Below, piece after piece: positions 31,766 to 62,488 of a DNA stretch of 64,000 bases. Under the pieces are notes generated by a model. That model made no database searches. It was not told where the DNA came from and saw only the letters and a program-made list of their open reading frames with translations. The DNA comes from Candidatus Moraniibacteriota bacterium. Its GTDB lineage: Bacteria; Patescibacteriota; Minisyncoccia; Moranbacterales; UBA1568. A program made the translations under genes and the position numbers. The stretch is taken from assembly GCA_013334575.1 (NCBI GenBank), contig JAAXXG010000003.1:12699-76698 (forward strand), in the 5' to 3' direction. The stretch's first letter is position 1. Each line of letters opens with the position of its first letter.

Positions 31766-31786
31766 TCATGAGGAGTCAGAAGAGGC

Positions 31787-32165: not shown

Positions 32166-32276
32166 CCTGACCCCTTTTCTGTTTTTGCGAGTCTTTCTTT
32201 TTCGACGAAACAGATTTTCGATATACAATGGAGGTATGAAGGAGGAGGATAAGCGAAATGGAAAGGATATTTCGAT

Positions 32277-33290
32277 ATGAGAGAAATTCCACGGTCTACG
32301 GAAAATAGGGAAGACCCGGTTTCTCCCTCGGAATCGTTCCTGAGGGAGTTCGTGTACGGAAACAGCGGCCTAAGCGAGTCCTCGAAAGCGTTTCTCGCGG
32401 AAAGGGTTGCCGTCGAAAAGCGTGGTCCATGGTCGGAAGCGGATTTTGTCCGGCGGGTCTACGAAAGCGGTGATCGGATAGTCGTCGAATTTCGGGATGG
32501 AGAAGCATATCTGTATCCTCCCTTGGGTATCAAGGCGGATGCTGACGATAATGCCGTAAGGGAAAAACGTTCCATGGAGCGGGACCTGAGGCCGATAGCC
32601 ACCACCGATTTTCAAAGGAAAATGACGGAAGTCGGTTTTGACGCTTCGGTTGTTGGGGAACTACTGAAACTCGTGCCGAGCTTGGGTCTGCGTGAAAACT
32701 CGGAAGCTCTGTTTCTTGGGCCTTCGAAGATGCCCCTTCAGTTTCTGGTCGCGAACGCGTGCGGTTCCGTAGAGGTTCTTGAGAAAAACGGCGAGCGTCG
32801 GGATTGGATTCGTGGTATGGCTGAATCGCTCGGAATTTCCGAAAAAATGAGGATCCGCGAACATGGAGAGGCAGAAATAGGCGCTGCTCGATTCGTGGAG
32901 GATTCGTATGATCTTATCGTCGCACTCAGCATACTCGATCTGGTCGGCGAGAGTCCCGAAGTCTACCGCCGTATGCTCAGGGCGGTGAGAGATGGAGGAA
33001 AGATAATAATCGGGCATCACGAGATGCTGTTCGGGGATCGGGAAAAATTGCTTCTCGAGCGGTATGCGGCAGACCTCAGGTACTCGGTTTTGGATCTCGG
33101 TATTTCGATCGATGACGGTCATGAACCGGGTGACCCATACTATAACCGGGAATCGTACCTGCTTCAGGTACTAAAACGAAAAGAGCGGAATGATACACCT
33201 TCGGGCGGGCGCCCCCGTGACCTTGTCGAGACATTACGTTTGTTTGCGGCGTTGGAAAGTCTGGGAGATGCCCGATCGCGGAAGGAATGA
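32277..33290 (+). CDS. Hypothetical protein (337 aa); weak class-I methyltransferase-like segment
   Basis: This long ORF has coding-like codon usage. YDLIVALSILDLVGESPEVYRRMLRAVRDGGKIIIG resembles the MTase motif III/IV region. Confidence 0.35.
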   Translation: MREIPRSTENREDPVSPSESFLREFVYGNSGLSESSKAFLAERVAVEKRGPWSEADFVRRVYESGDRIVVEFRDGEAYLYPPLGIKADADDNAVREKRSMERDLRPIATTDFQRKMTEVGFDASVVGELLKLVPSLGLRENSEALFLGPSKMPLQFLVANACGSVEVLEKNGERRDWIRGMAESLGISEKMRIREHGEAEIGAARFVEDSYDLIVALSILDLVGESPEVYRRMLRAVRDGGKIIIGHHEMLFGDREKLLLERYAADLRYSVLDLGISIDDGHEPGDPYYNRESYLLQVLKRKERNDTPSGGRPRDLVETLRLFAALESLGDARSRKE

Positions 33291-33349
33291 CATATTTTCG
33301 GAAAACGGCGGTATTCTTCGGAGAAAACGGACGGCGTATCGTTCCCTAG

Positions 33350-34228
33350 TCAATACCTTTGCATCACTTCTTCGGGTGTCTGGTACCCGATTCCCATATG
33401 AATCCGTTCCCCGTTGTAATACGGGAGGTATTTTGAAATTGCGTTTCTGAGCTTTGAAACGGAGCGTGGAACAAAGTCCAGGCACTCCTCCTGTATCGTA
33501 CGGTTGAACCGTTCCACATGCGCCTGATCGTTCGAGCGACGTTCCCTCGAGTGCCGGTGCGATATCCCGATTCGTTTCATCGCGTGCGTGAACCCGGTCG
33601 TGAACTCGGGTCCGTTGTCTGACTGGACCAACCGTATCTCAAACGGGGCCGATTCCCGGACCCGCCTCATGAACTCGACACTCTTTTTCGCCCCGATACG
33701 ATCCGTCGCCCAGGCAAAGCTCCACCTCGAGCAGAGATCAATCGCCGTATACACATAGACCCGTTCTCCCCTGGAAGACTGGAGGTGTATCGTATCGATT
33801 TCCACGAATGCTCCCGGATATGCGGCTTCCGGACGTCTCGTGTGGTCATGGGGTCGTTTCCAGGGAGAACGCTTCTTTGTCAGATGGCACCGGTCCAAGG
33901 TCCGCTGTACGGATGAGAGGGAAACCTTCATTCCGGCAGTCGTCAATTCATGATGGACCACCTGTCCGCACCGGTCATGTTCCAATCGTTTGTCGATGAT
34001 CGCCGAGACGATGTCTCGTGACAACGCTTTCGGATGATAGTGCGGCTTCGAAGACAGGGTCGGTATCGGTCCGACGTTCCGATGTTCCGCCTGCTTGGCC
34101 CACCGGATGATGGTGGACTGGTCATATCCGAAATATCTCGCCACTTCCCGGGAACTCTTTCCCGATCTGAGCATCTTCACCGCATCCCAGCGTACCTTCG
34201 GGATATTCGGGTTCGAGGAATATGCCAT
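33350..34228 (-). CDS. IS481-family DDE transposase (HTH plus rve integrase core)
   Basis: It has an N-terminal HTH (SSREVARYFGYDQSTIIRW) and an rve core with the D, D, E triad context (VEIDTIHL, YTAIDLCSRW, DNGPEF...HAMKRIGISHR). Confidence 0.75.
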   Translation of the reverse strand: MAYSSNPNIPKVRWDAVKMLRSGKSSREVARYFGYDQSTIIRWAKQAEHRNVGPIPTLSSKPHYHPKALSRDIVSAIIDKRLEHDRCGQVVHHELTTAGMKVSLSSVQRTLDRCHLTKKRSPWKRPHDHTRRPEAAYPGAFVEIDTIHLQSSRGERVYVYTAIDLCSRWSFAWATDRIGAKKSVEFMRRVRESAPFEIRLVQSDNGPEFTTGFTHAMKRIGISHRHSRERRSNDQAHVERFNRTIQEECLDFVPRSVSKLRNAISKYLPYYNGERIHMGIGYQTPEEVMQRY

Positions 34229-34277
34229 ATCTTTGCATGAGACGGGTCAGTCTAGCAGGTGATGCAAAGGTATTGAA
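33350..34277 (-). mobile_element. IS481-family insertion sequence (~0.93 kb) with 17-18-bp terminal inverted repeats (T)CAATACCTTTGCATCAC
   Basis: The left IR at 33350-33367 is the reverse complement of the right IR at 34259-34276. It encodes a single DDE transposase. Confidence 0.7.
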
Positions 34278-34282
34278 ACATT

Positions 34283-34311
34283 ACGAGGTCTTGACAAAAA
34301 AGACTATTTAA
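34283..34311 (+). promoter_or_regulatory. Sigma70-like promoter TTGACA-N17-TAATGT directly outside the IS right end
   Basis: A consensus -35 and a good -10 face the downstream 34460 gene. A structured leader follows. Confidence 0.5.
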
Positions 34312-34459
34312 GGTAATGTCTGTAACAGAATCTTTACATGGCTTTTCATCGATGGCCCATCCTATGCGAGTATTCGTCTCCGATGGGCCATCGACGAAAA
34401 CAATACTTCTGTCGCCCATGATGGCTGGTCGACGAAATTAGCTGAGAAAGGAGCTAATC

Positions 34460-35170
34460 ATGTATACGGAAAACTGTAATTTTAAGGTGGAGCTGCTCGT
34501 TCACGGGCGGCCTATAACGGAATACCTCCTCGGTGGTGACACGTTCGTCGAGGGACGGATGGGGTCGGAGTATGAGATCCGTATCACGAACTACAGCAGC
34601 AGAAATGCGGTCGCGGTCGTCAGCGTCGACGGTCTTTCCGTCATGAACGGCAAGCCCGCTTCCAGGGACGCTTCGGGGTACGTCCTCGAGCCGTTCGGGA
34701 ATGTCATCATTCCCGGCTGGCGTCTCAATAACGAAGGCGTCGCTCATTTCAAGTTCGGCGCGCTGCCGGAATCCTATGCCGAAAAGCAGGGAATGCCGGA
34801 GAATGTCGGGGCCATCGGCGTCGTCTTCTTCTTCGAGCGCAAGGCTCCGGAATTTCTGCCGAACTTCGATCTGCGGACAAAGGGGATTCGACCGCCGGTC
34901 ATGTACTCGGCGGCTCCGGGGTCGTACAGCGCGTCCATCGGTACCGAATTCGGCAGGCGGACCGAACACCGTGTCACGAATGTCAATTTCGACCGTGAGC
35001 CGTCTCCGGCGGCGGAGCTTGTGCTCCGCTACGACGAGGCGAGCAATCTCGAGTCGCGTGGCATCAGGCTGATCGGTTCGCATGTCGGCAGGGATGCGGT
35101 CCGTGAGGCGAGTCCGTTTCCCGCCGATATCGGCTGCGTCCCTCCCAGGGGATGGCACAGGAGAAAGTAA
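34460..35170 (+). CDS. Hypothetical protein (236 aa)
   Basis: A GGAG ribosome-binding site precedes the ATG. No recognised domain. Confidence 0.45.
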   Translation: MYTENCNFKVELLVHGRPITEYLLGGDTFVEGRMGSEYEIRITNYSSRNAVAVVSVDGLSVMNGKPASRDASGYVLEPFGNVIIPGWRLNNEGVAHFKFGALPESYAEKQGMPENVGAIGVVFFFERKAPEFLPNFDLRTKGIRPPVMYSAAPGSYSASIGTEFGRRTEHRVTNVNFDREPSPAAELVLRYDEASNLESRGIRLIGSHVGRDAVREASPFPADIGCVPPRGWHRRK

Positions 35171-35245
35171 GGCGATCGAATATTGAAATATCGAAGAGCT
35201 CGCAATGCGGGCTCTTTAATTTTACCCGGTACGAAAAAAGCCGGA

Positions 35246-35304
35246 TACCTTTTCAGCTCGGAAGGGTATTATGGGGGTGTAGGCGTCTAAAAAAATACCT
35301 GACC
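35246..35304 (+). repeat. M1-like degenerate repeat, copy 6a
   Basis: It reads ATACCTTTTCAGCTCGGAAGGGTATTATGGGGGTGTAGGCGTCTAAAAAAATACCTGACC. Confidence 0.45.
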
Positions 35305-35322
35305 TCTTTTCCGCTCCCCGAC

Positions 35323-35386
35323 TCCTTGCCTTTTCGGCCCGGAGGGGTATGGTGGAGGTGACGGTCTTTGCAAAAGGAATCCAGCC
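35323..35386 (+). repeat. M1 promoter/leader repeat, copy 6b
   Basis: It reads CTCCTTGCCTTTTCGGCCCGGAGGGGTATGGTGGAGGTGACGG... Confidence 0.55.
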
Positions 35387-35461
35387 TCTCTTTTTTGGTT
35401 GCGGGTGCTGAGTATGCCGCGTCGATATTTTGACGGAGTCGCACTTCCTGGAAATATCCGT

Positions 35462-43916: not shown

Positions 43917-44549
43917 ATGAAACGTATCCGGACCATCGTCCTTACCGGCGGGCCGTGCGGCGGCAAGAGCACGGTCCTGCGGGCCTTGCGCGAGGAATTC
44001 GGCGATCGGCTGGTGCCGGTGCCGGAGGCGGCGACCGTCCTCTTCGAGGGCGGTTTTCCGGTTCCCGGCCGGGACATCGAGTGGAGCGAGGAGTGGCAGG
44101 AGGCGTTCCAACCGGCCGTGCTGGCGCTGCAGGCCGCGCTCGAACAAAGTCACGCGCTCTTGGCCGCGGACCGGGACGTGGTGCTCGTGTGCGACCGGGG
44201 CCGGCTCGACGGGGCGGCGTATACCGAGGGCGGCGTCGGGGCGTTCTGCCGGATCCACGGGCTCGACGAGACCGAGACGCACGGACGGTACGACCTGGTG
44301 ATCCATCTGGAGTCGCTTGCGACGAGCCATCCCGAACGCTACGGGACCGAGGGGAACGCCGCGCGCTACGAGTCGCTCGAACAGGCGCAGGCGCTTGAGC
44401 GCGCGACGCGGGAGGCGTGGGGGAATCATCCACGGCGGAAAATGATCGGCGGGGAGCGGGGGATGGAGGGAAAGATCGAGGATGTGGTCGCGGTCGTGCG
44501 CGAACTGCTCGGCGAGGGCTCGGAATATTCCGATAAGGGACAACGATAA
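43917..44549 (+). CDS. AAA_28/NadR-like P-loop NTPase (predicted nucleoside/nucleotide kinase), full length
   Basis: The Walker A is LTGGPCGGKST. It is 210 aa. Its promoter and 5' end exist in three further upstream copies. Confidence 0.65.
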   Translation: MKRIRTIVLTGGPCGGKSTVLRALREEFGDRLVPVPEAATVLFEGGFPVPGRDIEWSEEWQEAFQPAVLALQAALEQSHALLAADRDVVLVCDRGRLDGAAYTEGGVGAFCRIHGLDETETHGRYDLVIHLESLATSHPERYGTEGNAARYESLEQAQALERATREAWGNHPRRKMIGGERGMEGKIEDVVAVVRELLGEGSEYSDKGQR

Positions 44550-49211: not shown

Positions 49212-49712
49212 ATGGCGACACAGGAGAATCTGATGGCGGCGTTCGCCGGCGAAAGTCAGGCGAATCGCAAGTACCTCGCGTTCGCGAAGAAGGCGGCGGC
49301 CGAGGGGTATCCGGCGGTAGCGAAACTTTTCCGCGCGGCAGCCGAAGCCGAGACGGTGCACGCGCACGCACATTTCGCCGCGGCCGGCGGCGTGCAGGAT
49401 ACCGTCGCGAATCTCGAGGCGGCGATCGCAGGGGAGCAGTACGAGTTTACGGATATGTATCCGGGCTTTATCGCCGAGGCCGAGAAGGAGGGTCATGCGG
49501 CTGCACTCAAGTCTTTCAGGAACGCCGACGCGGTCGAGCACGAGCACTACGAACTCTATCGGCTGGCGCTCGAGGCGATCAAAGCCGGGCATGATGTCGA
49601 GGACCTTGCGATCTATGTCTGTCCGGTCTGTGGGCACACCGAGGTCGGCGTCCGGTCGGAGAAGTGTCCGATCTGCGGCGTCCCGGGAAGCACGTTCATC
49701 GAGGTGAAATAA
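49212..49712 (+). CDS. rbr: Rubrerythrin
   Basis: It has a ferritin-like diiron domain with ExxH motifs and a C-terminal rubredoxin-like CPVCG...CPICG. Confidence 0.85.
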   Translation: MATQENLMAAFAGESQANRKYLAFAKKAAAEGYPAVAKLFRAAAEAETVHAHAHFAAAGGVQDTVANLEAAIAGEQYEFTDMYPGFIAEAEKEGHAAALKSFRNADAVEHEHYELYRLALEAIKAGHDVEDLAIYVCPVCGHTEVGVRSEKCPICGVPGSTFIEVK

Positions 49713-49727
49713 TTGAACGCTTGAAAC

Positions 49728-49752
49728 GGAAAGCGGCCCTCGGGCCGTTTTC
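49728..49752 (+). terminator. Terminator AAGCGGCCC-tc-GGGCCGTTTT
   Basis: A GC stem with a T-run. It is duplicated at about 52227-52251. Confidence 0.55.
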
Positions 49753-52171: not shown

Positions 52172-52251
52172 CGGGGCGTCCCCGGCAACACGTTCATCGA
52201 GGTGAAATAATTGAACGCTTGAAACGGAAAGCGGCCCTCGGGCCGTTTTTC
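52172..52251 (+). repeat. Duplicate of the rubrerythrin 3' end plus terminator (~80 bp)
   Basis: CACGTTCATCGAGGTGAAATAATTGAACGCTTGAAACGGAAAGCGGCCCTCGGGCCGTTTT is identical to 49691-49752. Confidence 0.8.
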
Positions 52252-53462: not shown

Positions 53463-53479
53463 CTAAAAAGTACCTGACC
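53463..53479 (+). repeat. Truncated M1 tail (CTAAAAAGTACCTGACC) preceding an M2 element
   Basis: It shares the M1 3' motif. Confidence 0.4.
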
Positions 53480-53632
53480 TGCCCTGTAGAAAAGACTTTT
53501 GTAGGATTGTCATTCCGGCCTCCGTCCGAGCATGCGCCGGCCAAGAGCCGGAATCTATGTCTTGGATTCTGGCTTTGACCCGGGATGACCGTACGGAAAA
53601 TCTGAAACGCGGAGATGATTTCTACGGAGCAT
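53480..53632 (+). repeat. M2 MITE-like structured element, direct orientation
   Basis: It is about 90% identical to 32012-32165, including the CTGTAGAAA / TTTCTACGG termini. Confidence 0.6.
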
Positions 53633-53792
53633 TCCCGACCTCTTTTCTGATTCAATTTCCGACACCTGTCACGGGAGGAACAGACCGAAAGAATCTTTCG
53701 ATTCCACGAATGATTTGGTGGCAGAAGTTATATATTACCAAAAAATAAGGCCTTCGCGAGGTGAAGGCCTTTAAGAATCGCGCTGATTCGGG

Positions 53793-54128
53793 TCAGAGTC
53801 CCTTATTCAGCAGTCCGCGTTCGACACTTTCAATCATGGATTGACCGGGGTCTATGAAATGGCTGTCCGTGAGCGACTTTCCGTCGGTTGTGCGGATCTT
53901 CATGTTCATGACGTACGTTCCCTTTTGTTCACCGGGACCGATGTCCGCAACGATTTCTGAAACGGATGGGTGCCGTTCAGTTAATTGTTGCAGGCCTATT
54001 TGGGACAGAGCCGCTTTTCCGCCGAACATGGAGATGTCGAGCTTAATCGGGTTCGGCGACTCGGCCTTGGCGGTTGTCGGTCCGAGCAGGACGGCGAACA
54101 GGAATGTCGCGGCAAGTGTTTTTTTCAT
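53793..54128 (-). CDS. Small secreted hypothetical protein (signal peptide)
   Basis: It starts MKKTLAATFLFAVLLGPTTAKA and is 111 aa. Confidence 0.5.
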   Translation of the reverse strand: MKKTLAATFLFAVLLGPTTAKAESPNPIKLDISMFGGKAALSQIGLQQLTERHPSVSEIVADIGPGEQKGTYVMNMKIRTTDGKSLTDSHFIDPGQSMIESVERGLLNKGL

Positions 54129-54264
54129 GGTCGATATCTTTTTGTTTTTTGAACGTACCCACCTTCATGTTGGGCGTATGTACTCTATAGCAGAAACAAG
54201 ATTTCTTGTCAATGATCACCGATGTGACCAGTGGTGCTTTACGACGGCCAAGGAGCGGAGGAAA

Positions 54265-55017
54265 ATGAGGGTGAAAGAGGAATATGTTTTGCGTATGCGT
54301 TTCGGGTACATGTCCGGTTGGCGCGGTGATCTGCTCTCGGAATTTGCCTTCGCGAAACGGCATTTCGATTTTACCGAAGTGACCATCGTGCCGGACGCGC
54401 TTGCGGCCGTTGAACGGACACTTCCTGAGCTTGTTGCCGCGCTCGACGGATTCCCGACGCTCGGGCATCTGCACTGGGACTTCGTGGGGTTCGACGATAT
54501 TGAAAGGAATATCCGCATACTGGAGCGGCTGGGTGTCGGCCTGATAACGATGCATCCGTTCGAAAATGTTGGAGTTCCGGAAAATATAGACATCATGGAG
54601 CGCGTTTCCGACTGTTGTCGTGGACGAGGAATCCGTCTTATGATCGAGAACGTCTCGAACGAACCCTATGCGACCATGGAGGGAATGGCTCCACTCCTGT
54701 CGGGTATTTCGAATGTCGGACTGACGTTCGATGTCGGTCATGCGAACAAGATCGGCGAGCTCGGGAATTTTCTTGACAGGTTCGGTGACCGTGTCGGACA
54801 TGTCCATCTCCACGACAATGTCGGGAAACGTGATCACTTATTTTTCTCCGATCGGAACCGGCTCAAAGCTAATCTCGAGAAACTCAGGGGAATCGGCTAT
54901 GACGGGACGGTCACGCTCGAGACCTTCGCTGCCATGAAGGACGGGCGGAGCGTCTCTCTCGGCTTCGACGAGATCAAGTCGTTTCATCCCGTCCAGGTCG
55001 AAATGCTCCGGAAATAA
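54265..55017 (+). CDS. Sugar phosphate isomerase/epimerase (xylose-isomerase-like TIM barrel)
   Basis: It has the metal-binding motifs IENV, FDVGHAN and HVHLHDN. An AGGAGCGGAGG ribosome-binding site lies upstream. Confidence 0.6.
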   Translation: MRVKEEYVLRMRFGYMSGWRGDLLSEFAFAKRHFDFTEVTIVPDALAAVERTLPELVAALDGFPTLGHLHWDFVGFDDIERNIRILERLGVGLITMHPFENVGVPENIDIMERVSDCCRGRGIRLMIENVSNEPYATMEGMAPLLSGISNVGLTFDVGHANKIGELGNFLDRFGDRVGHVHLHDNVGKRDHLFFSDRNRLKANLEKLRGIGYDGTVTLETFAAMKDGRSVSLGFDEIKSFHPVQVEMLRK

Positions 55018-55057
55018 TCCGCTTTACAACCGGGGCGGGGGGGACTTGAAAAATCAA

Positions 55058-55094
55058 AGCCGGGCAATAGTACGTCTATGCCCGGCTGGTTTTC
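55058..55094. terminator. Bidirectional terminator AGCCGGGCA-loop-TGCCCGGCT
   Basis: A 9-bp stem lies between the convergent genes ending at 55017 (+) and 55107 (-). Confidence 0.55.
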
Positions 55095-55106
55095 GAAAAT
55101 ACCGAT

Positions 55107-56120
55107 TCAGCTTATCTCGCGGTACAGGCAATGGCCGTCGCATGCCTCCGGAAGATGCTCCGGGAATCGCGCAGACAGCTCCTGAAGGACTTCGGAATAC
55201 GTCTGTCGCAGGAGATTCCCGATGACGGTGTCGTTGCCGGGGCACGGCGTCACGTCCCCGTTGCCGAGAATTTGAAGCCGTTCGATACATGCGGCTGTCC
55301 CGAAATTGTTGAGCACGGGGTGGACGAAGCCGAAACTTGCGTCGATATCGCGAATCTGCTGGCGCATCCAGGCTCGATCCTCAAGTGAGACGATGAGGCT
55401 CTGGTCGACTTCTCCTCGCCCACTTCTTCCCGTGGGAAGAAAGAACGAAAAGATGACCCAGACATTTTGTTCGCGGCACGTACGCAGCACGGCAGGGACC
55501 TCGCGGACATTGCGGCTCGTTACCACCATGTCGAAACCGAGTCGGGTCGTCCCATCATTGCGGACTGCATTGAACCCCTGCCTTTTGAGCAGCTCGAACG
55601 CCTGGTTTCGTTTCTCGAAATAACCCGGCTTTTCGTCTCCGACCATTTCGTCTTGGTAAGCCTGGTCCTGCAGGCTGTCGAGTTTCAGCACGACGCTTGC
55701 ATTGAGACCATACAGCCTGTGAACAAATTCCAGATCGGTCAAGTGCGCGGAACCCTCGCTGAAGACAACGGGAATGAGGCCGAGTGAGTGTGTAGTCCCC
55801 ACGATATCGAAGAAGTCCCGATCGAGTGTCGGCTCGCCCTCTCCGATGAAGTTGACGGTCTTCGGCCCCGACCAAGCGACCTCGTTAAGGATCAGCTTGA
55901 TCTGGTCGAGTGTGAGAGTCCGCTTTTTCTTGTCCGTAAAGCAGTGAGGGCAGTTGTGCGGACAGCCTTCCGTCATCGCGCAAAAATCGATCGTGTGCGT
56001 TCCGGCGCGAAACTTCGCGTCCGTGATGTTCCATCCGTTCAGAACGGCTCCGATCCCGATAGGGGTCCGGTTGCCGAGCTGAAAGTATCCTGGTCCATAT
56101 GACTGTGACATGGTCACCAT
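55107..56120 (-). CDS. Radical SAM protein with SPASM-like C-terminal Cys cluster
   Basis: The CPHNCPHC motif is of CxxxCxxC type. It has a GGEP-like GEGEPTL motif. The C-terminus carries CPGND...CDGHC. Confidence 0.65.
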   Translation of the reverse strand: MVTMSQSYGPGYFQLGNRTPIGIGAVLNGWNITDAKFRAGTHTIDFCAMTEGCPHNCPHCFTDKKKRTLTLDQIKLILNEVAWSGPKTVNFIGEGEPTLDRDFFDIVGTTHSLGLIPVVFSEGSAHLTDLEFVHRLYGLNASVVLKLDSLQDQAYQDEMVGDEKPGYFEKRNQAFELLKRQGFNAVRNDGTTRLGFDMVVTSRNVREVPAVLRTCREQNVWVIFSFFLPTGRSGRGEVDQSLIVSLEDRAWMRQQIRDIDASFGFVHPVLNNFGTAACIERLQILGNGDVTPCPGNDTVIGNLLRQTYSEVLQELSARFPEHLPEACDGHCLYREIS

Positions 56121-56214
56121 CCCTTTGTTTACTTGATGAAGTTGAAAAGAAACTGATGTCTAGTTATAGAAGATTTCCGACATCACGTCAAGTCCGCCGT
56201 AAGCCGGAGCCTGC

Positions 56215-56262
56215 ATGCTTTACAGTATATGCTTCGGGGAGTAGAAAGGGGGTGAAAGGGGC
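56215..56262 (+). repeat. Conserved leader repeat (GCTTTACA...GGGGAGTAGAAAGGGGGTGAAAGGG), copy 1
   Basis: It is about 85% identical to 58579-58626. Both copies precede a gene start by 20-40 nt. Confidence 0.55.
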
Positions 56263-56282
56263 AGTATACATTTGAATGGTCT

Positions 56283-57809
56283 ATGTTTTATAAGCATCAT
56301 CTGAAACATCTCGGCGTGAAGTATTCTTTTCCGAAACTTTTATCGGAAAAGGATTTTTCTGAGTGGGTGCGGGAAACGAAGGCTCCTGATGATGACGTCC
56401 TTGAGGCATTGCGCGCGGTCGATCTGGGAAAGAGGTATGGCGCGATGAATGCCCTCATGGAAGAACGGACAAAAAATATCAACGCGTTGTTTCTCGAGGA
56501 ATTGCCGGAATTTTTTGAGAATGAATCGGGAGGGAAGGAGGACGCGAAATACTTCAGTGATTTTTTGCAGGCCCATTTTTCCCGAGAGAAACATGTGCGG
56601 GTCCTGATCGTCCAGATGGTCGGGGAAATGTTGCTCGGAGCGCAGGGCACTCCCGATGGATTGAAGGATGATCTGAAAGTGAGGAAGATCATAAATGCCG
56701 AGCAAGCGGAGATCTGGCGAACCACGTTGGACTATCTCTCCCTTGCGGTCGAGGTCGTGGACGCCGCGAGCTATGTCGCCGACGACGCTTTCGACAAAAC
56801 ACTTTCACGATTCGGTGTCGATACCCCGTACAAGGTGCACGGTGATTTCGCAGGTCCGATAGGGGCCGATATCCTGTTGCACTCGCTTGGGAACTATATT
56901 TTCTATAAGACGATACGTGAGCACGAGCGCGGAGTCGAAGCCGGCTATCTGACGGAATCGGGTAGCGTGTCGACGAACGACAATCCGTATTCCTTGAAGT
57001 GGAAGGACGACACGACGGGCGTATATGTCTATATCAATCCGGAGCAGTACATGGACGTGTGGGAAGTCTGGTCGTGGGCGTGGTATCTGATCAATTCGGG
57101 ACAGATACGCGATCTGTATGAATTCGGACTCGAGGATATCGGGTCATTCGATGTCGACTCGTATATGTCGCGGGCCTATCGACTGTCCGGAGGGCTTATC
57201 GAGTGTGCCACGCATCTTTCGGCGGCCTTCATGGGATGCGGGTATTGGGAAGGTCGGCAGCATATCGGAAAATGGGCGGCGATATACGGCACGATGACGC
57301 AGATACGCAACGATTTTTACGATTACGTCCTGTATTCCGTCGAGGGTCCGAAGAAACACGATTTCGTGAAGGAGACGCACGAAGACGTCTCCTTGGGACG
57401 CGTCACACTGCCGCTCGGGTTCGCATATGCTCAGGCTGACGACGCGGACCGGAAGGCAATGCTTGAACTGGCGTCTTCCATGAAGGAAAAGAAGTCACAG
57501 GGCATGGAAATCCCCGAACAGGATAGGCTGAAGCTGAATGGTCTGATCGCGAAAAACGGTGGATTTCTCGCATCGAAAAAAATCATCTATAACATGGTGA
57601 CGTGGGCGGTGGATGAACTGATGCCGCTTCGGAAGGATTTTCAGGATAGCGGACGGTATTGGGATCTAGTCGCCTGGACCGTCGCGTCGCTGAATATCCT
57701 GAATATCGATCCGGAACGTACCGATCCTGGTGCCGGGTCGGTCGGCAATATGTTCGATTTGAAAGCGATTGCTGATTTTCTGAAACAGGCCTCGGTAAGC
57801 AATAAATGA
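56283..57809 (+). CDS. Isoprenoid-synthase-fold (trans-IPPS/terpene-synthase-like) domain protein, motifs degenerate
   Basis: It has a DDxxD motif (ADDAFD) and a second partial motif TQIRNDFYD. It is alpha-helical. Confidence 0.3.
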   Translation: MFYKHHLKHLGVKYSFPKLLSEKDFSEWVRETKAPDDDVLEALRAVDLGKRYGAMNALMEERTKNINALFLEELPEFFENESGGKEDAKYFSDFLQAHFSREKHVRVLIVQMVGEMLLGAQGTPDGLKDDLKVRKIINAEQAEIWRTTLDYLSLAVEVVDAASYVADDAFDKTLSRFGVDTPYKVHGDFAGPIGADILLHSLGNYIFYKTIREHERGVEAGYLTESGSVSTNDNPYSLKWKDDTTGVYVYINPEQYMDVWEVWSWAWYLINSGQIRDLYEFGLEDIGSFDVDSYMSRAYRLSGGLIECATHLSAAFMGCGYWEGRQHIGKWAAIYGTMTQIRNDFYDYVLYSVEGPKKHDFVKETHEDVSLGRVTLPLGFAYAQADDADRKAMLELASSMKEKKSQGMEIPEQDRLKLNGLIAKNGGFLASKKIIYNMVTWAVDELMPLRKDFQDSGRYWDLVAWTVASLNILNIDPERTDPGAGSVGNMFDLKAIADFLKQASVSNK

Positions 57810-57820
57810 AATCAACGGCG

Positions 57821-57920
57821 AAGCGGTTCAGGAAGACCTGAAAGCCTTCCTCCTGTCACTTGGCATCGGCACAGACGACATCGTCACCAAAGGCTACGAC
57901 ACGCTATTGTATGAGAAGGG
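57821..57920 (+). repeat. Orphan copy (~100 bp, ~92% identity) of the 3' end of the CYTH gene at 59101-59200
   Basis: It would encode ...AVQEDLKAFLLSLGIGTDDIVTKGYDTLLYEKG*. It sits between the 56283 gene and the S51 paralog. Confidence 0.8.
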
Positions 57921-57940
57921 GATCTGATTACACATCGACT

Positions 57941-58564
57941 ATGAAACTGATACTCGCTTCCGATTTGAGCTTTGTCCTGAAATACGGATATGGCCATACC
58001 GGTATCCCGAAGGCGGATATGCGGATCGGGTATGTGACGACCGCAACGAAGGGCGCTCGCTCGAAGGAATTTTTTGAAAACATGGAGCGGCAGATCGTGG
58101 AGTCCGGATATACTTTCGAGGAGTTCGACATCGAAGGAAAAAGCGCAGAAGAAATGAGATCGTTCTTCTCGGACAAGAATGTGATCCATATCGAGGGTGG
58201 CAATACCTTCTATCTTCTGAAAGCCATCCGAGAAACCGGCTTCGCCGAGGTACTCGATGAACTTCTCAAAGAGGGGAAAGTCTATATCGGTACGAGTACG
58301 GGATCCTATATAATGTGCCCGTCGATCGAAGTGGCGGATTGGGACGAAACCGGAAAAAGCCGGTTCGGAATGACCGACTTCACCGCCCTCAATTATGTCC
58401 CGTTCGTCCTCAAGGTACATTACAAGGATGAGATGCAGGAATCCGTGAGGGAAAAGATGAAGACTGCGCACCATCCGCTCCGATTACTGCGTGAAGGGCA
58501 AGGCATCCTCGTCGACAACGGCGTCGAAACCTTCGTCGGTGACGGAGAAGAAACGGTGTTATAG
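57941..58564 (+). CDS. Peptidase S51, paralog 2
   Basis: It has the IEGGNTFYLL motif and the nucleophile context IGTSTGSYIM. Confidence 0.65.
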   Translation: MKLILASDLSFVLKYGYGHTGIPKADMRIGYVTTATKGARSKEFFENMERQIVESGYTFEEFDIEGKSAEEMRSFFSDKNVIHIEGGNTFYLLKAIRETGFAEVLDELLKEGKVYIGTSTGSYIMCPSIEVADWDETGKSRFGMTDFTALNYVPFVLKVHYKDEMQESVREKMKTAHHPLRLLREGQGILVDNGVETFVGDGEETVL

Positions 58565-58578
58565 GTGAATTATATCCG

Positions 58579-58626
58579 CTTTACAACGGCGTGTTTGGGG
58601 AGTAGAAAGGGGGTGAAAGGGATGGA
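58579..58626 (+). repeat. Conserved leader repeat, copy 2
   Basis: It reads CCGCTTTACAACGGCGTGTTTGGGGAGTAGAAAGGGGGTGAAAGGG. Confidence 0.55.
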
Positions 58627-58665
58627 TATTCCGTTCCGATGGTGGGGTATGTCATTAGTACCGAC

Positions 58666-59229
58666 ATGAAGGAAATCGAGATCAAAGCTCGGATGCGCGA
58701 TATCGACACGCTGACCGGGGCGCTTGCCGCCAAGGGGTTCGTGTTCGGCGAACCCGCGGTCCAAAACGACGTGATATTCCTGCCGGCCGGGATCGAGTTC
58801 CCGGAAATCACCAAAGGGGTTCCGGTCGTGCGCGTGCGGAACGCGGACGGCGTTTCGACCCTGACGCTCAAGATGGGTGTCGTCGCCGGGAAGGAGCTCA
58901 TAAAGCTGGAGAAGGAGGTGAGGGTGGGCGACGACAAGACGGCTATCGAGATCGTCTCGCTTATGGGATTTCACGAGGTGATACGAGTCGGCAAGAAACG
59001 GATGGAATGCGAACACGACGGCGTGACCGTCTGTATCGACGACGTGACCGGACTCGGGGCGTTCATCGAGGTCGAGCAATTGTCGGACGCTGAAAACGAC
59101 GAAGCGGTCCAGGAAGAGCTGAAAGCCTTCCTTCTGTCGCTCGGCATCGGCACAGACGACATCGTCACCAAAGGCTACGACACGCTTTTGTATGAGAAGG
59201 ATAGCCGCTTTGCAAGGATTGGATTATAG
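58666..59229 (+). CDS. CYTH-domain protein (class IV adenylate cyclase-like), paralog 2
   Basis: The N-terminus reads MKEIEIKARM (ExExK). It has the CYTH beta-barrel motifs. Its 3' 100 bp are duplicated at 57821-57920. Confidence 0.65.
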   Translation: MKEIEIKARMRDIDTLTGALAAKGFVFGEPAVQNDVIFLPAGIEFPEITKGVPVVRVRNADGVSTLTLKMGVVAGKELIKLEKEVRVGDDKTAIEIVSLMGFHEVIRVGKKRMECEHDGVTVCIDDVTGLGAFIEVEQLSDAENDEAVQEELKAFLLSLGIGTDDIVTKGYDTLLYEKDSRFARIGL

Positions 59230-59308
59230 AGTAGAAATGAATGAGATTTATTTCAAGTGATAATTGTATATATTGTTACCTAGCAATAATTGATTTTGAC
59301 CTTTCAAT

Positions 59309-60568
59309 ATGAATCTAAAAACATTCGATGTGCATTCATATCGATCATGCCAGAGCGTTAAATTTCCTCTTAATAGAGATTTAACTGGTTTGATTGGGAT
59401 AAATGGATCGGGTAAAACCAACGTTTTGAATTCAATTTTTTTGCTGAGAAAAATATCAGAATTCAGATTCAAATACGCGAATAATCGAGACACAGAATAT
59501 AATACTTGCAAAATTGGAGCAGTCTTTGAACATAACGGGATATCCATTCAGTTGAAGGCGACGATCTATCTTGAAATGGATGAACGAAATAATGACGAGA
59601 TAATTTCTTCCGATTTTAAATGGAAGTTTTCGAATTATAATTCGAAAGAATGGCTGACAATTCCTATTGAATTCTTTTCGAATCAATTTAATAGCAGCTC
59701 ATTTCATCTTCCAGTAAGTATTCGTAGTAACATTCGTTTTTCAAAAGGATCAAGGGGCAGTTTTTTTGAAATATATAAATTATTCCATACAAAAGAATTT
59801 AAAAAAAATGTGCAACCATTACTTCATGAAGTATTTGAATTCATCAATGGAATAAATTATTATAGCGCGACACAATTTTCTGATCCCGGACGCTGTCCAG
59901 TCTCTATTGAACTGGAAGAAGACAGGTTTCGAAGGAGGACGCATTCTTCATCTGGTCATGAGCAGTTCATTTTCGATTTATATAATTCACACAAGCAAAA
60001 TGATAAGGAGTTTATAAGATATTTTAATACAATAGGCAAAGTTGGAATTGGTCTGATTGACGAATTGTCTTTTGAGACTTTACCAATTCCATCAAGTACC
60101 TATAAGGTGCGATCTGGTGGTCAAATTAAACAAAAAAATTTCGAGAGACAACTGATCGTACCAATTTTTACAATTAATGGTAAGAAATTGTCGCCTAACC
60201 AATTATCTGAAGGGACGTTCAAGACATTAGCATTGCTCTATTACCTCATTACGGATAAAAGCACACTACTTCTAATTGAGGAACCTGAGGTATGTATCCA
60301 TCATGGCTTGCTCGACAGTATAATTAAGTTATTGATTAGTCAGTCAAAGCATAAACAAATTATTATAAGTACACATTCGGATTTTGTACTAGATCACTTG
60401 TCACCAGAGAATATACTCCTTGTTAAATATCTGGAGACAAAAGGAACAACGGTTAAACAATTATCAAAGTCAATGAGTAGTGATGAGTATCGGGCTCTGA
60501 AGATGTATCTCAAAGAGTCGGGTAATTTAGGTGAATATGCACGAGAAGGCGGATTCGAGTATGAGTAA
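59309..60568 (+). CDS. OLD/ABC-type AAA ATPase (AAA_21-like), AT-rich gene
   Basis: The Walker A is GINGSGKTN. LSEGTFKTLALL is signature-like. The Walker B is LLLIEEPEVCIHH. The H-loop is IISTHS. Confidence 0.75.
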   Translation: MNLKTFDVHSYRSCQSVKFPLNRDLTGLIGINGSGKTNVLNSIFLLRKISEFRFKYANNRDTEYNTCKIGAVFEHNGISIQLKATIYLEMDERNNDEIISSDFKWKFSNYNSKEWLTIPIEFFSNQFNSSSFHLPVSIRSNIRFSKGSRGSFFEIYKLFHTKEFKKNVQPLLHEVFEFINGINYYSATQFSDPGRCPVSIELEEDRFRRRTHSSSGHEQFIFDLYNSHKQNDKEFIRYFNTIGKVGIGLIDELSFETLPIPSSTYKVRSGGQIKQKNFERQLIVPIFTINGKKLSPNQLSEGTFKTLALLYYLITDKSTLLLIEEPEVCIHHGLLDSIIKLLISQSKHKQIIISTHSDFVLDHLSPENILLVKYLETKGTTVKQLSKSMSSDEYRALKMYLKESGNLGEYAREGGFEYE

Positions 60569-61145
60569 ACGAAAGCCAAGAGTCGGAATAATTGCAGAAG
60601 ACAGGAGTGATATTGAGTGCGTACGAGCGCTGATTTTTCGAATAACAAATGATAATAAAATTGGTGTAGACGGGATGGCGAAAAATGGATGCACCATGCT
60701 GGTTCGGAAGTGCGGACATTGGGCTGTTAATTTACATGAAAAAGGATGTAATTTGCTAATTGTGATTCATGATTCGGATGGGAAAGATCCGCGTGCGATA
60801 CATAATAGGATTGAGCTTGCGCTTCATGCGTGTCCGATAGTAAAGAAAATAATCACAATACCTGTCGAAGAAATTGAAGCCTGGTTGCTTGCTGATCCTA
60901 ATGCAATAAAAAAAGGCATCAATTTAGATAAGATTCCAAAAATTAATAGAAACGTTGAACAAATATCTTCCCCAAAGGAATTTCTCGAAGACATTATTGA
61001 TAAAACATCTAATCGAGAAAAGATCTATATTAATAGTAAACATAATGCAATGATTGCTCGCAACATCGATATAGAAAAGATTAAGGAAAAGTGCCCATCC
61101 TTTTTGCCGTTTCTTAAATTTGTACAGGAAAACACTGTTTCGTAG
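60561..61145 (+). CDS. TOPRIM-like small protein (DUF4276/RloB-like), partner of the upstream ATPase
   Basis: It has a conserved Glu in GIIAEDRSD, a DxD in VIHDSDG and an EIEAWLLADP motif. Its start overlaps the ATPase stop as ATGAGTAA. It is AT-rich. Confidence 0.55.
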   Translation: MSKRKPRVGIIAEDRSDIECVRALIFRITNDNKIGVDGMAKNGCTMLVRKCGHWAVNLHEKGCNLLIVIHDSDGKDPRAIHNRIELALHACPIVKKIITIPVEEIEAWLLADPNAIKKGINLDKIPKINRNVEQISSPKEFLEDIIDKTSNREKIYINSKHNAMIARNIDIEKIKEKCPSFLPFLKFVQENTVS

Positions 61146-61253
61146 CGTAGCAAAGGGGCTCAGGTACTTTGAGCTATAATCGAGCACATGTTGAGCATCA
61201 GGCTGACGGGATTCGAATGCGGACGAAGGGAGGGAATGTGCGATACTGGCGAT

Positions 61254-61400
61254 ATGACAAAGGATGAGACATACGAACGGATACTGAAAGAAGCGAGGAA
61301 CGATTCCGAAGTCCTCGGCTTCGCTCTGACCGGGGGAGTAGGGAAGGGCTTCGTGACCGAACATTCGGAAAGATATGAACAGGCGGGCGGAAGATGGTAG
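61254..61400 (+). pseudogene. Possible truncated N-terminal fragment of an ANT(6)/AadK-like nucleotidyltransferase
   Basis: MTKDETYERILKEARNDSEVLGFALTGG resembles the AadK N-terminus M..E.EM.D.ILDFALNDERIRLVTLEGS. It stops after 48 codons. Confidence 0.25.
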
Positions 61401-61423: not shown

Positions 61424-61864
61424 ATGCTTATGAAGGTAGGTGTTGATTATATCGGAGTCGGATGCGGGGCTATCGTCATAAACGAAAAGGACGAAGTACT
61501 GCTCCTGAGGCGATCGACAACGTCGCGGACCGATCCCGGAAAATGGTGTCGTCCGGGCGGGCAGGTCGAATTTGGTGAGTCTGTCGCGGCTGCGGTCGAG
61601 CGTGAAACGAAGGAAGAGGCGGGTATCGTCGTACGCGCAATCAGGCCGCTTGAATTCACGGATGATCGTTCCGAAGATATGTCGAAACACTGGATTGCAC
61701 TCGGGTATCTCGCCGAACACGTTTCCGGTGAACCGGTGAACGTTGAACCTGACAAGCACGACACAATCGGATGGTTTCCGCTTGACCAGCTTCCGGAAAA
61801 CCTGGCGACATATACAAAGAACTCGATTGACGTGTATCTTGATCAAAAGCGATACGGGCTGTAA
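61424..61864 (+). CDS. NUDIX hydrolase
   Basis: The Nudix box reads GGQVEFGESVAAAVERETKEEAGI (Gx5Ex7REUxEExGU). Confidence 0.8.
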   Translation: MLMKVGVDYIGVGCGAIVINEKDEVLLLRRSTTSRTDPGKWCRPGGQVEFGESVAAAVERETKEEAGIVVRAIRPLEFTDDRSEDMSKHWIALGYLAEHVSGEPVNVEPDKHDTIGWFPLDQLPENLATYTKNSIDVYLDQKRYGL

Positions 61865-61873: not shown

Positions 61874-62488
61874 ATGCTCATCTTTCTCGCGTCGACTGCG
61901 GCAAAGACTATCGATAGGATCGTACCGCTGTTGCCGAAACCGGCCGCAGAGATGCGGGTGGCGTTTGTTCCGACGGCGGGTGATATTTACGATCCGCATC
62001 CGTGGGTTGAGGCGGACCGGGATGCGCTCGTCGGTCTCGGGTTCCAGGTCGCGGATATTGACTTGAAGACATGCCACGGAGAAGAGCTGAGGAAACGACT
62101 TTCCGGGGCGGATATCATCTTTGTCGCCGGAGGGAGCACTTCGTATCTTCTTGAGCAGGCACAACTGAGCGGCTTCGTTGTCATCGCGCGGGATCTTGTT
62201 CGGGCGGGGAAGATATACGTCGGCTCGAGCGCCGGGTCACTTCTTGCGGGCCCTGATATCGAGGTGGACAAGGTATATGACGAAGGGGATTTCGGAAAGA
62301 CGTTGGCCTCGTATGAGGGACTCGGACTTGTCGATTTCGTCGTCTTGCCGCATGCCGACCGTTTGGACTATCTTCCGTATCTGGAACGGGCGGAGTTGGA
62401 GTATGGTGAGGGCCGAAAGCTGGTTAGGCTCAATGAAATGCAGGCGATTGTCGTCACGGACGACGGGATGAAACGTATTGAGGCATGA
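61874..62488 (+). CDS. Peptidase S51, paralog 3
   Basis: It has the FVAGGSTSYLL motif and the nucleophile context YVGSSAGSLL. Confidence 0.65.
   Translation: MLIFLASTAAKTIDRIVPLLPKPAAEMRVAFVPTAGDIYDPHPWVEADRDALVGLGFQVADIDLKTCHGEELRKRLSGADIIFVAGGSTSYLLEQAQLSGFVVIARDLVRAGKIYVGSSAGSLLAGPDIEVDKVYDEGDFGKTLASYEGLGLVDFVVLPHADRLDYLPYLERAELEYGEGRKLVRLNEMQAIVVTDDGMKRIEA

Follow-up and report, generated by a model that had tools for sequence, protein, structure and literature searches.

The stretch of DNA analysed here, hereafter the window, comprises 64,000 nt of Candidatus Moraniibacteriota bacterium (assembly GCA_013334575.1, contig JAAXXG010000003.1, positions 12,699–76,698, forward strand), and all positions below are counted along it unless another genome is named. 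The host is an uncultivated, tiny CPR bacterium of the Moranbacteria group. Its genome is presumably metagenome-derived, a kind of source in which repeats can mislead assemblers.

From left to right, the locus holds a radical SAM/SPASM gene (55107–56120, minus strand) followed, all on the plus strand, by a gene for a 508-aa protein with a prenyl-diphosphate-synthase fold (56283–57809), a PepE-like peptidase S51 gene (57941–58564), an intact CYTH, or class IV adenylate-cyclase-like, gene (58666–59229) and a pair of defence-type genes (59309–61145). The CYTH product scores 64.9 bits against the Pfam CYTH profile (cut-off 23.2) and 83.6 bits against NCBIfam TIGR00318 (cyaB; cut-off 57.95), above the curated cut-off, and is annotated here as a putative class IV adenylate cyclase/CYTH member. 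Its likely start is MKEIEIK; an in-frame ATG lies upstream at 58639, in a frame that is not conserved in relatives. The 508-aa protein matches polyprenyl_synt in Pfam (52 bits), and its AlphaFold model (pLDDT 81) retrieves 4jyx in Foldseek with a target TM-score of 0.80. The S51 protein scores 100.4 bits in Pfam and has orthologues 81–88% identical to it in four related assemblies (L001, L010, L013 and L014). Exact-sequence look-ups with the S51 and 508-aa proteins of the window returned nothing on record, and PADLOC gave no defence match for the CYTH, the S51 or the 508-aa gene.

An initial annotation of the same DNA had counted three S51 and two CYTH genes in the window, which Pfam bears out (S51 at 35462, 57941 and 61874; CYTH at 46910 and 58666). 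It had also drawn the distant copies into a shuffling of the locus, but S51 at 35462 and 61874 and CYTH at 46910 are old paralogs, with protein identities of 24–32%, and did not arise from the recent shuffling. The wider co-occurrence of CYTH and S51 that it had suggested testing did not materialise either: none of 8 S51 orthologue loci from other CPR genomes has a CYTH gene within 10 kb, and none of the 5 contigs bearing CYTH homologues outside the sublineage has an S51 neighbour. A functional linkage between the two genes was rejected, since their adjacency is confined to this sublineage.

The 106-nt repeat

A 106-nt direct repeat joins 57814–57919 to 59095–59200, the latter lying within the 3' end of the intact CYTH gene (both on the plus strand); the two copies are identical at 99 of 106 positions (93%; blastn E 7e-39). 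The repeated CYTH 3' end previously noticed in this place is thus real, although its 5' edge had been set 6–7 nt off. It covers the last 35 CYTH codons: read in frame (57811–57927, ending on TGA), the upstream copy, hereafter the stub, gives the CYTH C-terminus INGEAVQEDLKAFLLSLGIGTDDIVTKGYDTLLYEKGI followed by a stop, where the intact gene reads ENDEAVQEELKAFLLSLGIGTDDIVTKGYDTLLYEKDSRFARIGL and a stop. The stub starts 4 nt past the stop of the 508-aa gene, in a frame different from that of this gene, and 21 nt separate its end from the start of S51.

Such a fragment could be retained for a function, either as a cis element for S51 expression or as a tail added to the 508-aa protein through a +1 shift at AAA-TGA-A. 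Indeed, the reading frame is open over 38 codons in both the window and L014, all six differences from the intact gene within the in-frame core of the window stub fall at third positions (five synonymous changes and one conservative), and stubs persist in all four genomes with a disrupted CYTH copy (the window, L014, L001 and L010) despite the small size of CPR genomes. However, no in-frame ATG, GTG or TTG follows the upstream stop, no Shine–Dalgarno-like stimulator precedes the stop codon, and a generic promoter scan listed no promoter-like site inside the stub. In L014, three non-synonymous changes have turned KAFLLSLG into ISFLLLLG, and in L001 and L010 the stub does not adjoin S51 at all. 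The window stub does not itself show decay. Conversion from intact copies (described below) accounts for the third-position bias and blurs any signal of relaxed constraint. A function for the stub is, in our judgement, very unlikely.

The leader module

The 508-aa gene and the CYTH gene are both preceded by what the initial annotation described as a leader of about 48 bp. A leader does stand before both genes, not as one continuous block but as two conserved boxes separated by a variable spacer of fixed length. Its core, GGGGAGTAGAAAGGGGGTGAAAGGG, has exactly two copies in the window (56236–56260 and 58597–58621; 0 expected from shuffles), and GCTTTACA lies 13 nt upstream of both cores, with a different intervening spacer in each and 36 of 54 positions identical overall. 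Leader A1 (56217–56261, plus strand) reads TTTACA, 17 nt, TAGAAA and then GGGGGTGAAAGGG, and now precedes the 508-aa gene; leader A2 (58577–58621, plus strand) stands before the intact CYTH gene. A short frame right after A2 (MDIPFRWWGMSLVPT and a stop) is common to L001 only, the frame not being kept in L010 and L013.

Two further sites belong to the same type. An orphan copy (55019–55062, plus strand) has no gene downstream, and within it CCGCTTTACAAC at 55019–55030 is the leader fragment that had been spotted near 55018. This copy is complete in L010 (8761–8804), whereas those of the window and L013 are degenerate. In the window, a hairpin (approx. 55059–55086) comes after it and is shared by two convergent genes, AP-endonuclease-like and radical SAM. 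The other site, a further leader-type promoter at 59206–59237 (plus strand; CCGCTTTGCA, 17 nt, TAGAAA), overlaps the last CYTH codons and precedes the low-GC defence genes.

The leader looks like a sigma-70-type promoter, with TTTACA as −35 box, a 17-nt spacer and TAGAAA as −10 box. Several observations lead to this reading: in eight leader copies from the window, L001 and L010 the boxes are conserved whereas the spacers differ, always at a spacing of 17 nt; TTTACA-N17-TAGAAA with at most one mismatch occurs five times in the window (52319, 55023, 56219, 58580 and 59209) against 0.07 expected; the orphan copy has decayed; and the leader shows no RNA structure or Rfam match. Promoter activity is a prediction from the consensus, and the generic promoter scan did not list the leader sites because TAGAAA lacks the final T that it requires. 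A riboswitch or other structured RNA was ruled out, both leaders and the stub having fold z-scores of +1.1 to −1.1, and Rfam returned no match in 54900–59400, whether at the gathering threshold or at E ≤ 1. A phage origin was also ruled out: the nine viral-contig matches to an 18-mer core are all unrelated Shine–Dalgarno-type sites without a TTTACA box.

The locus in related genomes

Together with the window, the four related assemblies make up five genomes, among which L013 (4.5 kb) and L014 (4.8 kb) are represented by short contigs and L014 comes from a separate JGI assembly. Gene order varies among them for a common set of genes. In L013, leader A1 is followed by an intact CYTH gene and then by S51; both the stop-to-S51 junction GGGATYTGATTACACATCGACTATG and the upstream flank of A1 match the window. 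Indeed, window 57814–58587 corresponds to L013 2396–3169 at 91%, the stub aligning colinearly with the 3' end of a CYTH gene that is intact in L013, and window 56187–56261 corresponds to L013 1846–1920 at 92%. By position, leader A1 is orthologous to the leader of the CYTH gene in L013 and in L010; window 55011–56256 corresponds to L010 8752–10011, and the radical SAM gene is kept beside A1 in all three genomes. In L014, the 508-aa gene, the stub, S51 and A2 are colinear with window 56251–58621 (93.4% over 2373 nt), with the junction AAGCAATAAATGAAATCAACG identical, at an overall divergence of 6.6%. In L001, S51, A2 and CYTH are colinear with the window at 91.6%.

The comparison of locus structure across relatives that had been suggested explains the repeat: from the intact CYTH gene at the same position in L013, and from the junctions of L014, we read the repeat as the stub of a CYTH pseudogene. 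The initial annotation had taken the common 3' end for an element of the cassettes; it appears instead to be the coding tail of a displaced CYTH gene, which is intact at that place in L013 and whose stubs in L014 and L001 carry non-synonymous changes suggestive of decay.

These junctions also dispel the concern that the duplication might be an artefact of assembly, through repeats that were collapsed or joined as chimeras. There are 7 differences between the two copies, no repeat contains the left edge of the stub, and every junction recurs in independent assemblies (508-aa gene/stub/S51/A2 in L014, S51/A2/CYTH in L001, CYTH tail/S51 in L013); the probability of such an error is close to nil. 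We likewise weighed a recent local copying of 106 nt from the intact CYTH gene into a place that never held a full second gene. The 93% identity of the stub, which equals the level found between orthologues of different genomes, speaks for it, but L013 has a full CYTH gene at the exact position, with the same S51 junction and with an A1-type leader and flank. The presence of the same stub in L014, at 6.6% overall divergence, means that the event is not recent, and L010 carries an S51 stub 85% identical to its intact S51 gene, which points to an old duplication of a whole unit. Local copying is on these grounds highly improbable.

In L010, an S51 3' stub, A2 and a CYTH stub sit between an intact CYTH and an intact S51 gene, a layout to be expected of a tandem array that has decayed. 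The CYTH stub of L010 is identical to the intact gene of the same genome at 98 of 99 positions, and to the copies of other genomes at only 81–87 of 99; the B-type stubs (window and L014) agree with each other at 89 of 99 and with intact genes at 93–95 of 99. As stubs are nearer to intact copies than to one another, these figures indicate gene conversion, by which stubs would sometimes be overwritten from an intact copy. The A-type stubs (L001 and L014) share the replacement of TD by KM, and the 5' part of both contains an in-frame stop; the upstream stub of L001 is truncated differently, at a deletion junction common to L014 and L010. A stub junction common to L001 and L010, together with an intact gene in the closer relative L013, would imply either at least three ancestral units or an intact copy rebuilt by recombination.

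Many of the homology breaks among the five genomes fall at leader copies or gene stubs: 10 of the 40 listed ends of homology blocks coincide with leader edges, including both ends of the block common to the window and L014. This coincidence may partly reflect selection rather than mechanism, since breakpoints survive only in intergenic DNA, about one-third of which consists of leaders.

Proposed gene displacement, defence genes and known systems

Our favoured explanation, to which we attach a probability of about three in four, is that the 106-nt repeat is the scar left when one gene displaced another, in a part of a Moranbacteria genome that is prone to rearrangement and rich in defence genes. 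The ancestor would have had two or more units of leader, CYTH and S51 in tandem. A prenyl-synthase-like gene would have replaced the 5' approx. 475 nt of the upstream CYTH gene (a size estimated through colinearity with L013), with a 5' junction in the common leader, which would supply homology, and a 3' junction formed by an illegitimate join within the last codons of the incoming gene. The outcome would be a 106-nt CYTH tail directly before the S51 gene at 57941, which was probably once the downstream partner of the displaced copy, while the second unit (S51, leader, CYTH) would have remained intact. The leader, composed of the −35 box TTTACA, the 17-nt spacer, the −10 box TAGAAA and a purine-rich transcript start, precedes several unrelated genes; it would keep incoming genes expressed and would also offer short homology for ectopic recombination, and occasional gene conversion from the intact copy would keep the stubs recognisable. 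The order of these steps is tentative. Copies of 99–106 nt are too short for a tree to rank the events, and they were compared through their identity matrix.

On the 5' side, the break falls within the leader: spacer and flank of the window's A1 are of the A1 type, while the gene behind it matches the prenyl-synthase unit of L010. The 508-aa protein ends in DFLKQASVSNK, whereas its L010 orthologue ends in DFLNRD; because the last approximately six residues differ, the 3' junction is placed within the last approx. 6 codons of the incoming gene, where no homology to CYTH exists. One homologous and one non-homologous junction would fit homology-facilitated illegitimate recombination, the mechanism that we infer. 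The leader homology is short, with 25 nt exact and about 45 nt in total; experiments on this kind of recombination have involved anchors longer than the approx. 45 nt of the leader.

Similar scars are found elsewhere. A copy of the rubrerythrin 3' end and terminator (52175–52249, plus strand; 96% identical to 49677–49751) lies after an ABC exporter gene and is a scar of the same kind as the CYTH stub; in L010, a rubrerythrin 3' stub follows a different gene. Altogether, repeats made of a promoter and a gene fragment form at least four families in the 64-kb window. The slot after CYTH/A2 is itself variable: it holds an AAA_21 ATPase and DUF4276 pair in the window (59309–61145, plus strand; HEC-01A/B-like in PADLOC; 35% GC versus 55% for the whole window), an AriA/Old/GajA-like ATPase in L001 and mREase_IV in L014, where A2 precedes this type IV restriction gene instead of CYTH. 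The same flanks thus hold different defence-type genes in the three genomes compared, as judged by profile matches.

The initial annotation had concluded that small gene cassettes were being shuffled by recombination. Reshuffling of single-gene units with a common leader, driven by recombination, is a fair description, the same genes being reordered with breaks at leaders and stubs, but no sign of dedicated cassette machinery was detected. A dedicated, integron-like system, in which the leader (and perhaps the 3' ends) would act as recognition sites moving single genes with one promoter per cassette, could account for breakpoints at leader edges in five genomes, for new low-GC defence genes that begin right after a leader (window, L001 and L014) and for the four or more families of promoter-plus-fragment repeats. 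Nevertheless, the ORFs scanned from 40 to 64 kb contain no integrase or recombinase domain (three of them have no Pfam match at all), the leader has neither inverted repeat nor stable fold, no inverted repeats were found at the unit ends, and leader and stub fold like shuffled sequence. Moreover, stub boundaries vary from event to event (106, about 134 or about 190 nt), the 508-aa gene has its 3' junction within the coding sequence, and the repeats are plain coding pieces of neighbouring genes. The 21-mer leader core had no match in the metagenome collection scanned, which is evidently without samples holding L010 and L014, and the viral matches are the unrelated ribosome-binding sites mentioned above. 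We consider such a system unlikely. Doubtful as well is the idea that promoter modules serve as portable landing pads, leader-directed recombination placing incoming genes, defence genes included, behind leaders; if true, it would allow integrase-free capture and immediate expression of foreign genes in tiny genomes, and the promoter-plus-fragment repeats of the window would be its footprints.

The displacement that we propose resembles several known systems in part. As in integron cassettes, a single locus contains one-gene units whose order varies; unlike them, the units lack an integrase and an attC-like folded site, each has its promoter, and the junctions cut coding sequence. Putative mobile promoters are highly similar upstream sequences (more than 50 nt at ≥80% identity) before non-homologous genes of one genome, read as the reuse of a promoter by which further genes become rewired or activated (Matus-Garcia, Nijveen and van Passel 2012, PMC3488235). 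The genes downstream of A1 and A2 are likewise non-homologous (prenyl-synthase-like versus CYTH), as are those upstream (radical SAM, on the minus strand, versus S51), and several such families exist in the genome of the window. However, the similarity falls short of the 50-nt threshold (25 nt exact, approx. 45 nt with a divergent spacer, 36/54), and reuse has a traceable origin here, namely the displacement of the first gene, of which a stub remains; intermediates are visible in relatives.

Orphaned 3' ends are also known from Vibrio cholerae T6SS effector–immunity arrays and from Rhs C-terminal displacement, where homology-facilitated illegitimate recombination was given as their cause (Kirchberger et al. 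2017, PMC5361080, and references therein). The likeness lies in an upstream anchor, an illegitimate other end, a replaced front and a 3' stub pushed downstream, and in arrays that differ between strains. In contrast, the genes involved here are housekeeping-type enzymes (CYTH and S51) rather than toxin and immunity genes, the anchor would be a promoter of approx. 45 nt and not a long, conserved part of a gene, the host is a CPR bacterium, and the mechanism is conjectured. Finally, defence-system hotspots are described as sitting between conserved core genes (for example PMC10250203 and PMC10121019). The slot after CYTH/A2, with a different defence-type gene per genome and a low-GC insert in the window, is similar to the hotspots so described, but the slot yielded no mobile-element genes, and the likeness concerns three genomes and profile matches only.

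The event is thus of a known kind, an ordinary scar of gene turnover. Its value lies in being a well-resolved example, as five related CPR genomes catch several states of the process, namely an intact unit, a stub next to a new gene, and stubs that are double or converted. It singles out the surroundings of CYTH/S51 as a hotspot in Moranbacteria that is variable and rich in defence genes, and the density of reused promoter-plus-fragment repeats (at least four families in 64 kb) could merit a genome-wide survey. More generally, a streamlined genome with few mobile elements may be able to swap genes and yet keep them expressed from an inherited promoter.

Origin of the repeated CYTH 3' end

Pfam and NCBIfam matches describe the region as an AP-endonuclease-2/TIM-barrel gene (53854-55017), a radical SAM/SPASM gene (rSAM; 55107-56120, minus strand), a 508-aa gene weakly matching polyprenyl synthases (56283-57809), a peptidase S51 gene (57941-58564), a CYTH gene exceeding the curated class IV adenylate cyclase cut-off (58666-59229), an AAA_21 ATPase with DUF4276 in a 35% GC insert (59309-61145), a NUDIX gene (61424-61864) and a second S51 (61874-62488). 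The nearest genomes are metagenome-assembled Candidatus Moraniibacteriota/Moranbacteria (CPR/Patescibacteria). As the initial annotation had noticed, the 3' end of CYTH recurs between the 508-aa gene and S51, in the form of a 106-nt direct repeat (57814-57919 and 59095-59200; identity 93%, blastn E 7e-39). The upstream copy begins 4 nt past the stop of the 508-aa gene, and 21 nt separate its end from the S51 start. Translated in the CYTH frame, it gives INGEAVQEDLKAFLLSLGIGTDDIVTKGYDTLLYEKGI and a stop, the intact C-terminus being ENDEAVQEELKAFLLSLGIGTDDIVTKGYDTLLYEKDSRFARIGL and a stop; it contains no start codon, and its frame differs from that of the preceding 508-aa gene.

Four related assemblies place this copy in context (A, leader; A', leader copy beside a hairpin; d, stub). 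The window reads A'(degenerate) + hairpin - rSAM(minus) - A1 - 508-aa gene - dCYTH(106 nt) - S51 - A2 - CYTH - leader-like promoter - AAA_21/DUF4276, and L013 (GCA_013336235, 4.5 kb) reads A1 - intact CYTH - S51 - A'(degenerate) + hairpin - rSAM(minus). Since L013 carries a full CYTH at the same site, with the same leader flank (92% match to 56187-56261) and the same S51 junction (CYTH tail and S51 91% identical to 57814-58587, stop-to-S51 junction identical), the upstream copy is interpreted as the 3' remnant of a CYTH copy after replacement of its front part, estimated at about 475 nt from colinearity with L013. The L013 leader-CYTH-S51-rSAM block itself has a 14-nt direct repeat, GTCAAGTCCGCCGT, at both ends (1846-1860 and 4334-4347) and adjoins sequence which the window carries at 30.9-31.9 kb; either the block was transposed or permuted, or the assembler made this join in a short contig.

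L014 (4.8 kb, from a JGI metagenome; A - dCYTH(A-type, about 190 nt) - degenerate leader - 508-aa gene - dCYTH(106 nt) - S51 - A2 - type IV restriction-like gene) is colinear with 56251-58621 (93.4% over 2373 nt), encodes a 508-aa protein 97% identical to that of the window and has an identical gene/stub junction. A junction common to both at 6.6% divergence is inherited rather than an assembly error. L001 (JAAXXZ010000004; A - dCYTH(A-type) - PEP-synthase-like 802-aa gene - S51 - A2 - CYTH - OLD/AriA-like ATPase) is colinear with the window over S51-A2-CYTH (91.6%), which confirms this part of the arrangement.

Probable tandem ancestry and gene conversion of the stubs

The fourth assembly, L010 (JGI, 77.7 kb), reads A - 130-aa gene - A - 508-aa orthologue - A' + hairpin - rSAM(minus) - A1 - intact CYTH - leader-like - 594-aa gene - dS51(3' 114 nt) - A2 - dCYTH(A-type) and, further on, intact S51 - reverse transcriptase. 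The presence of dS51-A2-dCYTH between intact copies indicates a putative ancestral tandem array of A-CYTH-S51 units, of which the lineages would have kept different members. The duplication is old, since within L010 the S51 stub and the intact S51 share only 85% identity.

Compared over a 99-nt in-frame core, the A-type stubs of L001 and L014 are identical at 97/99 positions and have a TD-to-KM change in common; their 5' part holds an in-frame stop, and the junction of this part (ATGAAGRCATCSRATCTCSTTTTG...) is also found in L010. The L010 stub matches the intact gene of its own genome at 98/99 positions and the copies of other genomes at only 81-87/99. Among the B-type stubs, which have a common truncation, window and L014 agree at 89/99 positions; the window stub matches intact genes at 93/99 and 95/99, and the L014 stub, with three non-synonymous changes, matches the window intact gene at 93/99. 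Within this core, all six differences between the window stub and the intact gene fall at third codon positions, which gene conversion would explain with no need for translation. These patterns fit non-coding relics occasionally overwritten by an intact paralog through gene conversion.

The initial annotation had further drawn the S51 genes at 35462 and 61874 and a second CYTH into the shuffling. This part does not hold: these S51 genes share only 24-32% identity with S51 orthologues of the 57941 gene and the two CYTH genes of the window 28% with each other, and they are thus old paralogs, outside any recent shuffling. Adjacency of CYTH and S51 is limited to this sublineage, and functional coupling is therefore not implied.

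A shared leader and the probable route of displacement

The leader shared by the 508-aa gene (A1, 56217-56261) and CYTH (A2, 58577-58621), described as a ~48-bp repeat, has a 25-nt exact core, GGGGAGTAGAAAGGGGGTGAAAGGG (56236-56260 and 58597-58621; 0 expected from shuffles), with GCTTTACA 13 nt upstream in both copies, but the intervening spacer differs and leader plus flanks are identical at only 36/54 positions. In eight leader copies from the window, L001 and L010, GCTTTACA and GGGAGTAGAAAGGGGGTGAAAGG enclose a stretch that varies in sequence but is always 13 nt long, i.e. TTTACA, 17 nt, TAGAAA, then a purine-rich tract resembling a Shine-Dalgarno sequence. With one mismatch allowed, TTTACA-N17-TAGAAA occurs five times in the window, always within 52.3-59.2 kb (0.07 expected). 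Promoters are typified by conserved boxes at a fixed distance, with a spacer free to vary in sequence, and we infer from this pattern that the leader is a putative promoter. Rfam has no family matching the leader region at E<=1, and both leaders fold no better than shuffled sequence. The fragment reported near 55018 is indeed present (CCGCTTTACAAC, 55019-55030); this copy has no gene behind it, and its 3' half, kept in the complete L010 copy, is missing from the window and L013, a decay consistent with conservation through use.

The spacer type and upstream flank of window A1 are those of the CYTH leader in L013 and L010. A1 is followed by the orthologue of the L010 508-aa gene, which in L010 lies behind a different leader copy, across the rSAM gene; the 5' break of the displacement would therefore lie inside the leader. 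The 3' join falls within the last codons of the incoming gene (C-terminus DFLKQASVSNK in the window versus DFLNRD in L010, each before the stop), which there abuts CYTH without evident homology. One homologous and one illegitimate end are the signature of homology-facilitated illegitimate recombination, proposed for the displacement of T6SS effectors and of Rhs C-termini, where orphaned 3' ends remain (PMC5361080). The window displacement probably bears this signature, and the displacement scars of polymorphic toxin loci correspond to the window stub. Leader copies could equally well have recombined ectopically within the genome. Leader sharing is here alike in concept to putative mobile promoters, but the leader falls short of the length threshold of that study (PMC3488235). 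Integron cassettes were rejected: the ORFs scanned between 40 and 64 kb include no integrase, there is no attC-like fold, a separate promoter precedes every unit and the junctions cut into coding sequence.

Comparison of L001 with L010 suggests that a leader-to-leader deletion joined the leader of a PaaX-like gene to the A-type stub. Of the 40 homology-block ends listed between the window and its four relatives, 10, including both ends of the L014 block, fall at leader copies, a figure to be read knowing that breaks persist only between genes and that leaders make up about a third of intergenic space. The main further possibility, of low probability, is that these genomes systematically use leader-directed capture.

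A variable region and other scars in the window

According to profile matches in the window, L001 and L014, the defence-type gene in the slot after CYTH or A2 differs from genome to genome (HEC-01A/B-like, AriA/Old/GajA-like ATPase and type IV restriction enzyme, respectively), and a more distant contig has a KAP NTPase there, so that the region behaves like a variable hotspot. The window insert (59230-61200; 35% GC versus 55% for the whole window) includes the AAA_21 ATPase and DUF4276, matching the PADLOC candidate defence system HEC-01A/B.

For the 508-aa protein, a trans-prenyl-diphosphate-synthase fold is predicted (AlphaFold pLDDT 81; Foldseek match 4jyx, target TM-score 0.80, identity about 15%), with additional beta hairpins, a ~130-aa N-terminal extension and invariant DDxxD (167-171) and NDxxD (343-347) motifs. 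A database search yielded no more than about a dozen homologues, the examined contigs resembling CPR genomes, and in this lineage the gene is often close to a radical SAM/SPASM gene. The window rSAM protein (55107-56120, minus) weakly matches prokaryotic viperins (PADLOC pVip, 46 bits; NCBIfam viperin, 30.5 bits for a cut-off of 180) and, below their cut-offs, many maturase families.

The same kind of scar is present at further window sites, in rubrerythrin, AAA_28 and nucleotidyltransferase-like repeats:

— The last 36 nt of rubrerythrin and its terminator hairpin (49677-49751) are duplicated (96%) at 52175-52249, after a 778-aa ABC exporter gene, both genes being preceded by GCTTTACAC-N14-GGGAAAAT; in L010 (5279-5324), a rubrerythrin 3' stub follows a peptidase M42 gene.

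— Between 40119 and 44120, a 58-nt leader and the first 18-68 codons of an AAA_28 gene (intact at 43917-44549) occur in four copies, the other three preceding unrelated genes (Fic, 40519; 190-aa, 41892; 367-aa, 42692); in one copy, the retained coding part amounts to 205 nt (96% identity).

— The promoter region and first ~45 codons of a nucleotidyltransferase-like gene precede NUDIX (61208-61369), and recur three times in L010 (16848, 17452, 19371; intact gene at 19367-20158) and in L001 at 13995.

Other repeats were observed in the window. A 63-nt promoter-like leader (CTTGCCTTTTCGGCCCGGAGGGGTATGGTGG..., TTGCCT-N17-TATGGT) has seven copies within 25161-35387, upstream of mostly unannotatable genes, and is similar at its 3' end to the terminal repeat of a 182-nt element. 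The latter, 145-188 nt long in its three copies (27308-27452, inverted; 31997-32184; 53465-53652; 83-90% identity), one of them inside the CYTH/S51 variable region, has ~34-nt terminal inverted repeats, folds as single-stranded DNA far better than shuffled sequence (z = -5.0) and looks like a miniature inverted-repeat transposable element (MITE). Next to tRNA-Ser(GCT) (24982-25069), an internal 38-nt piece of this gene is duplicated 150 nt upstream (97%; 24865-25107 region), and its 3' end with downstream sequence (43 nt) is found again at 30280 and 30356 (30280-30398 region); these fragments may represent scars left at the attachment sites of an integrated element of ~5.2 kb.

Overall, the initial observation is confirmed and its interpretation as recombination-driven cassette shuffling partly supported: leader-carrying single-gene units have been reshuffled, but the 3' repeat is a pseudogene stub, to which the other paralogs are irrelevant. 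Gene displacement, promoter reuse and gene conversion are known processes, of which this locus is a new example in an under-studied group.
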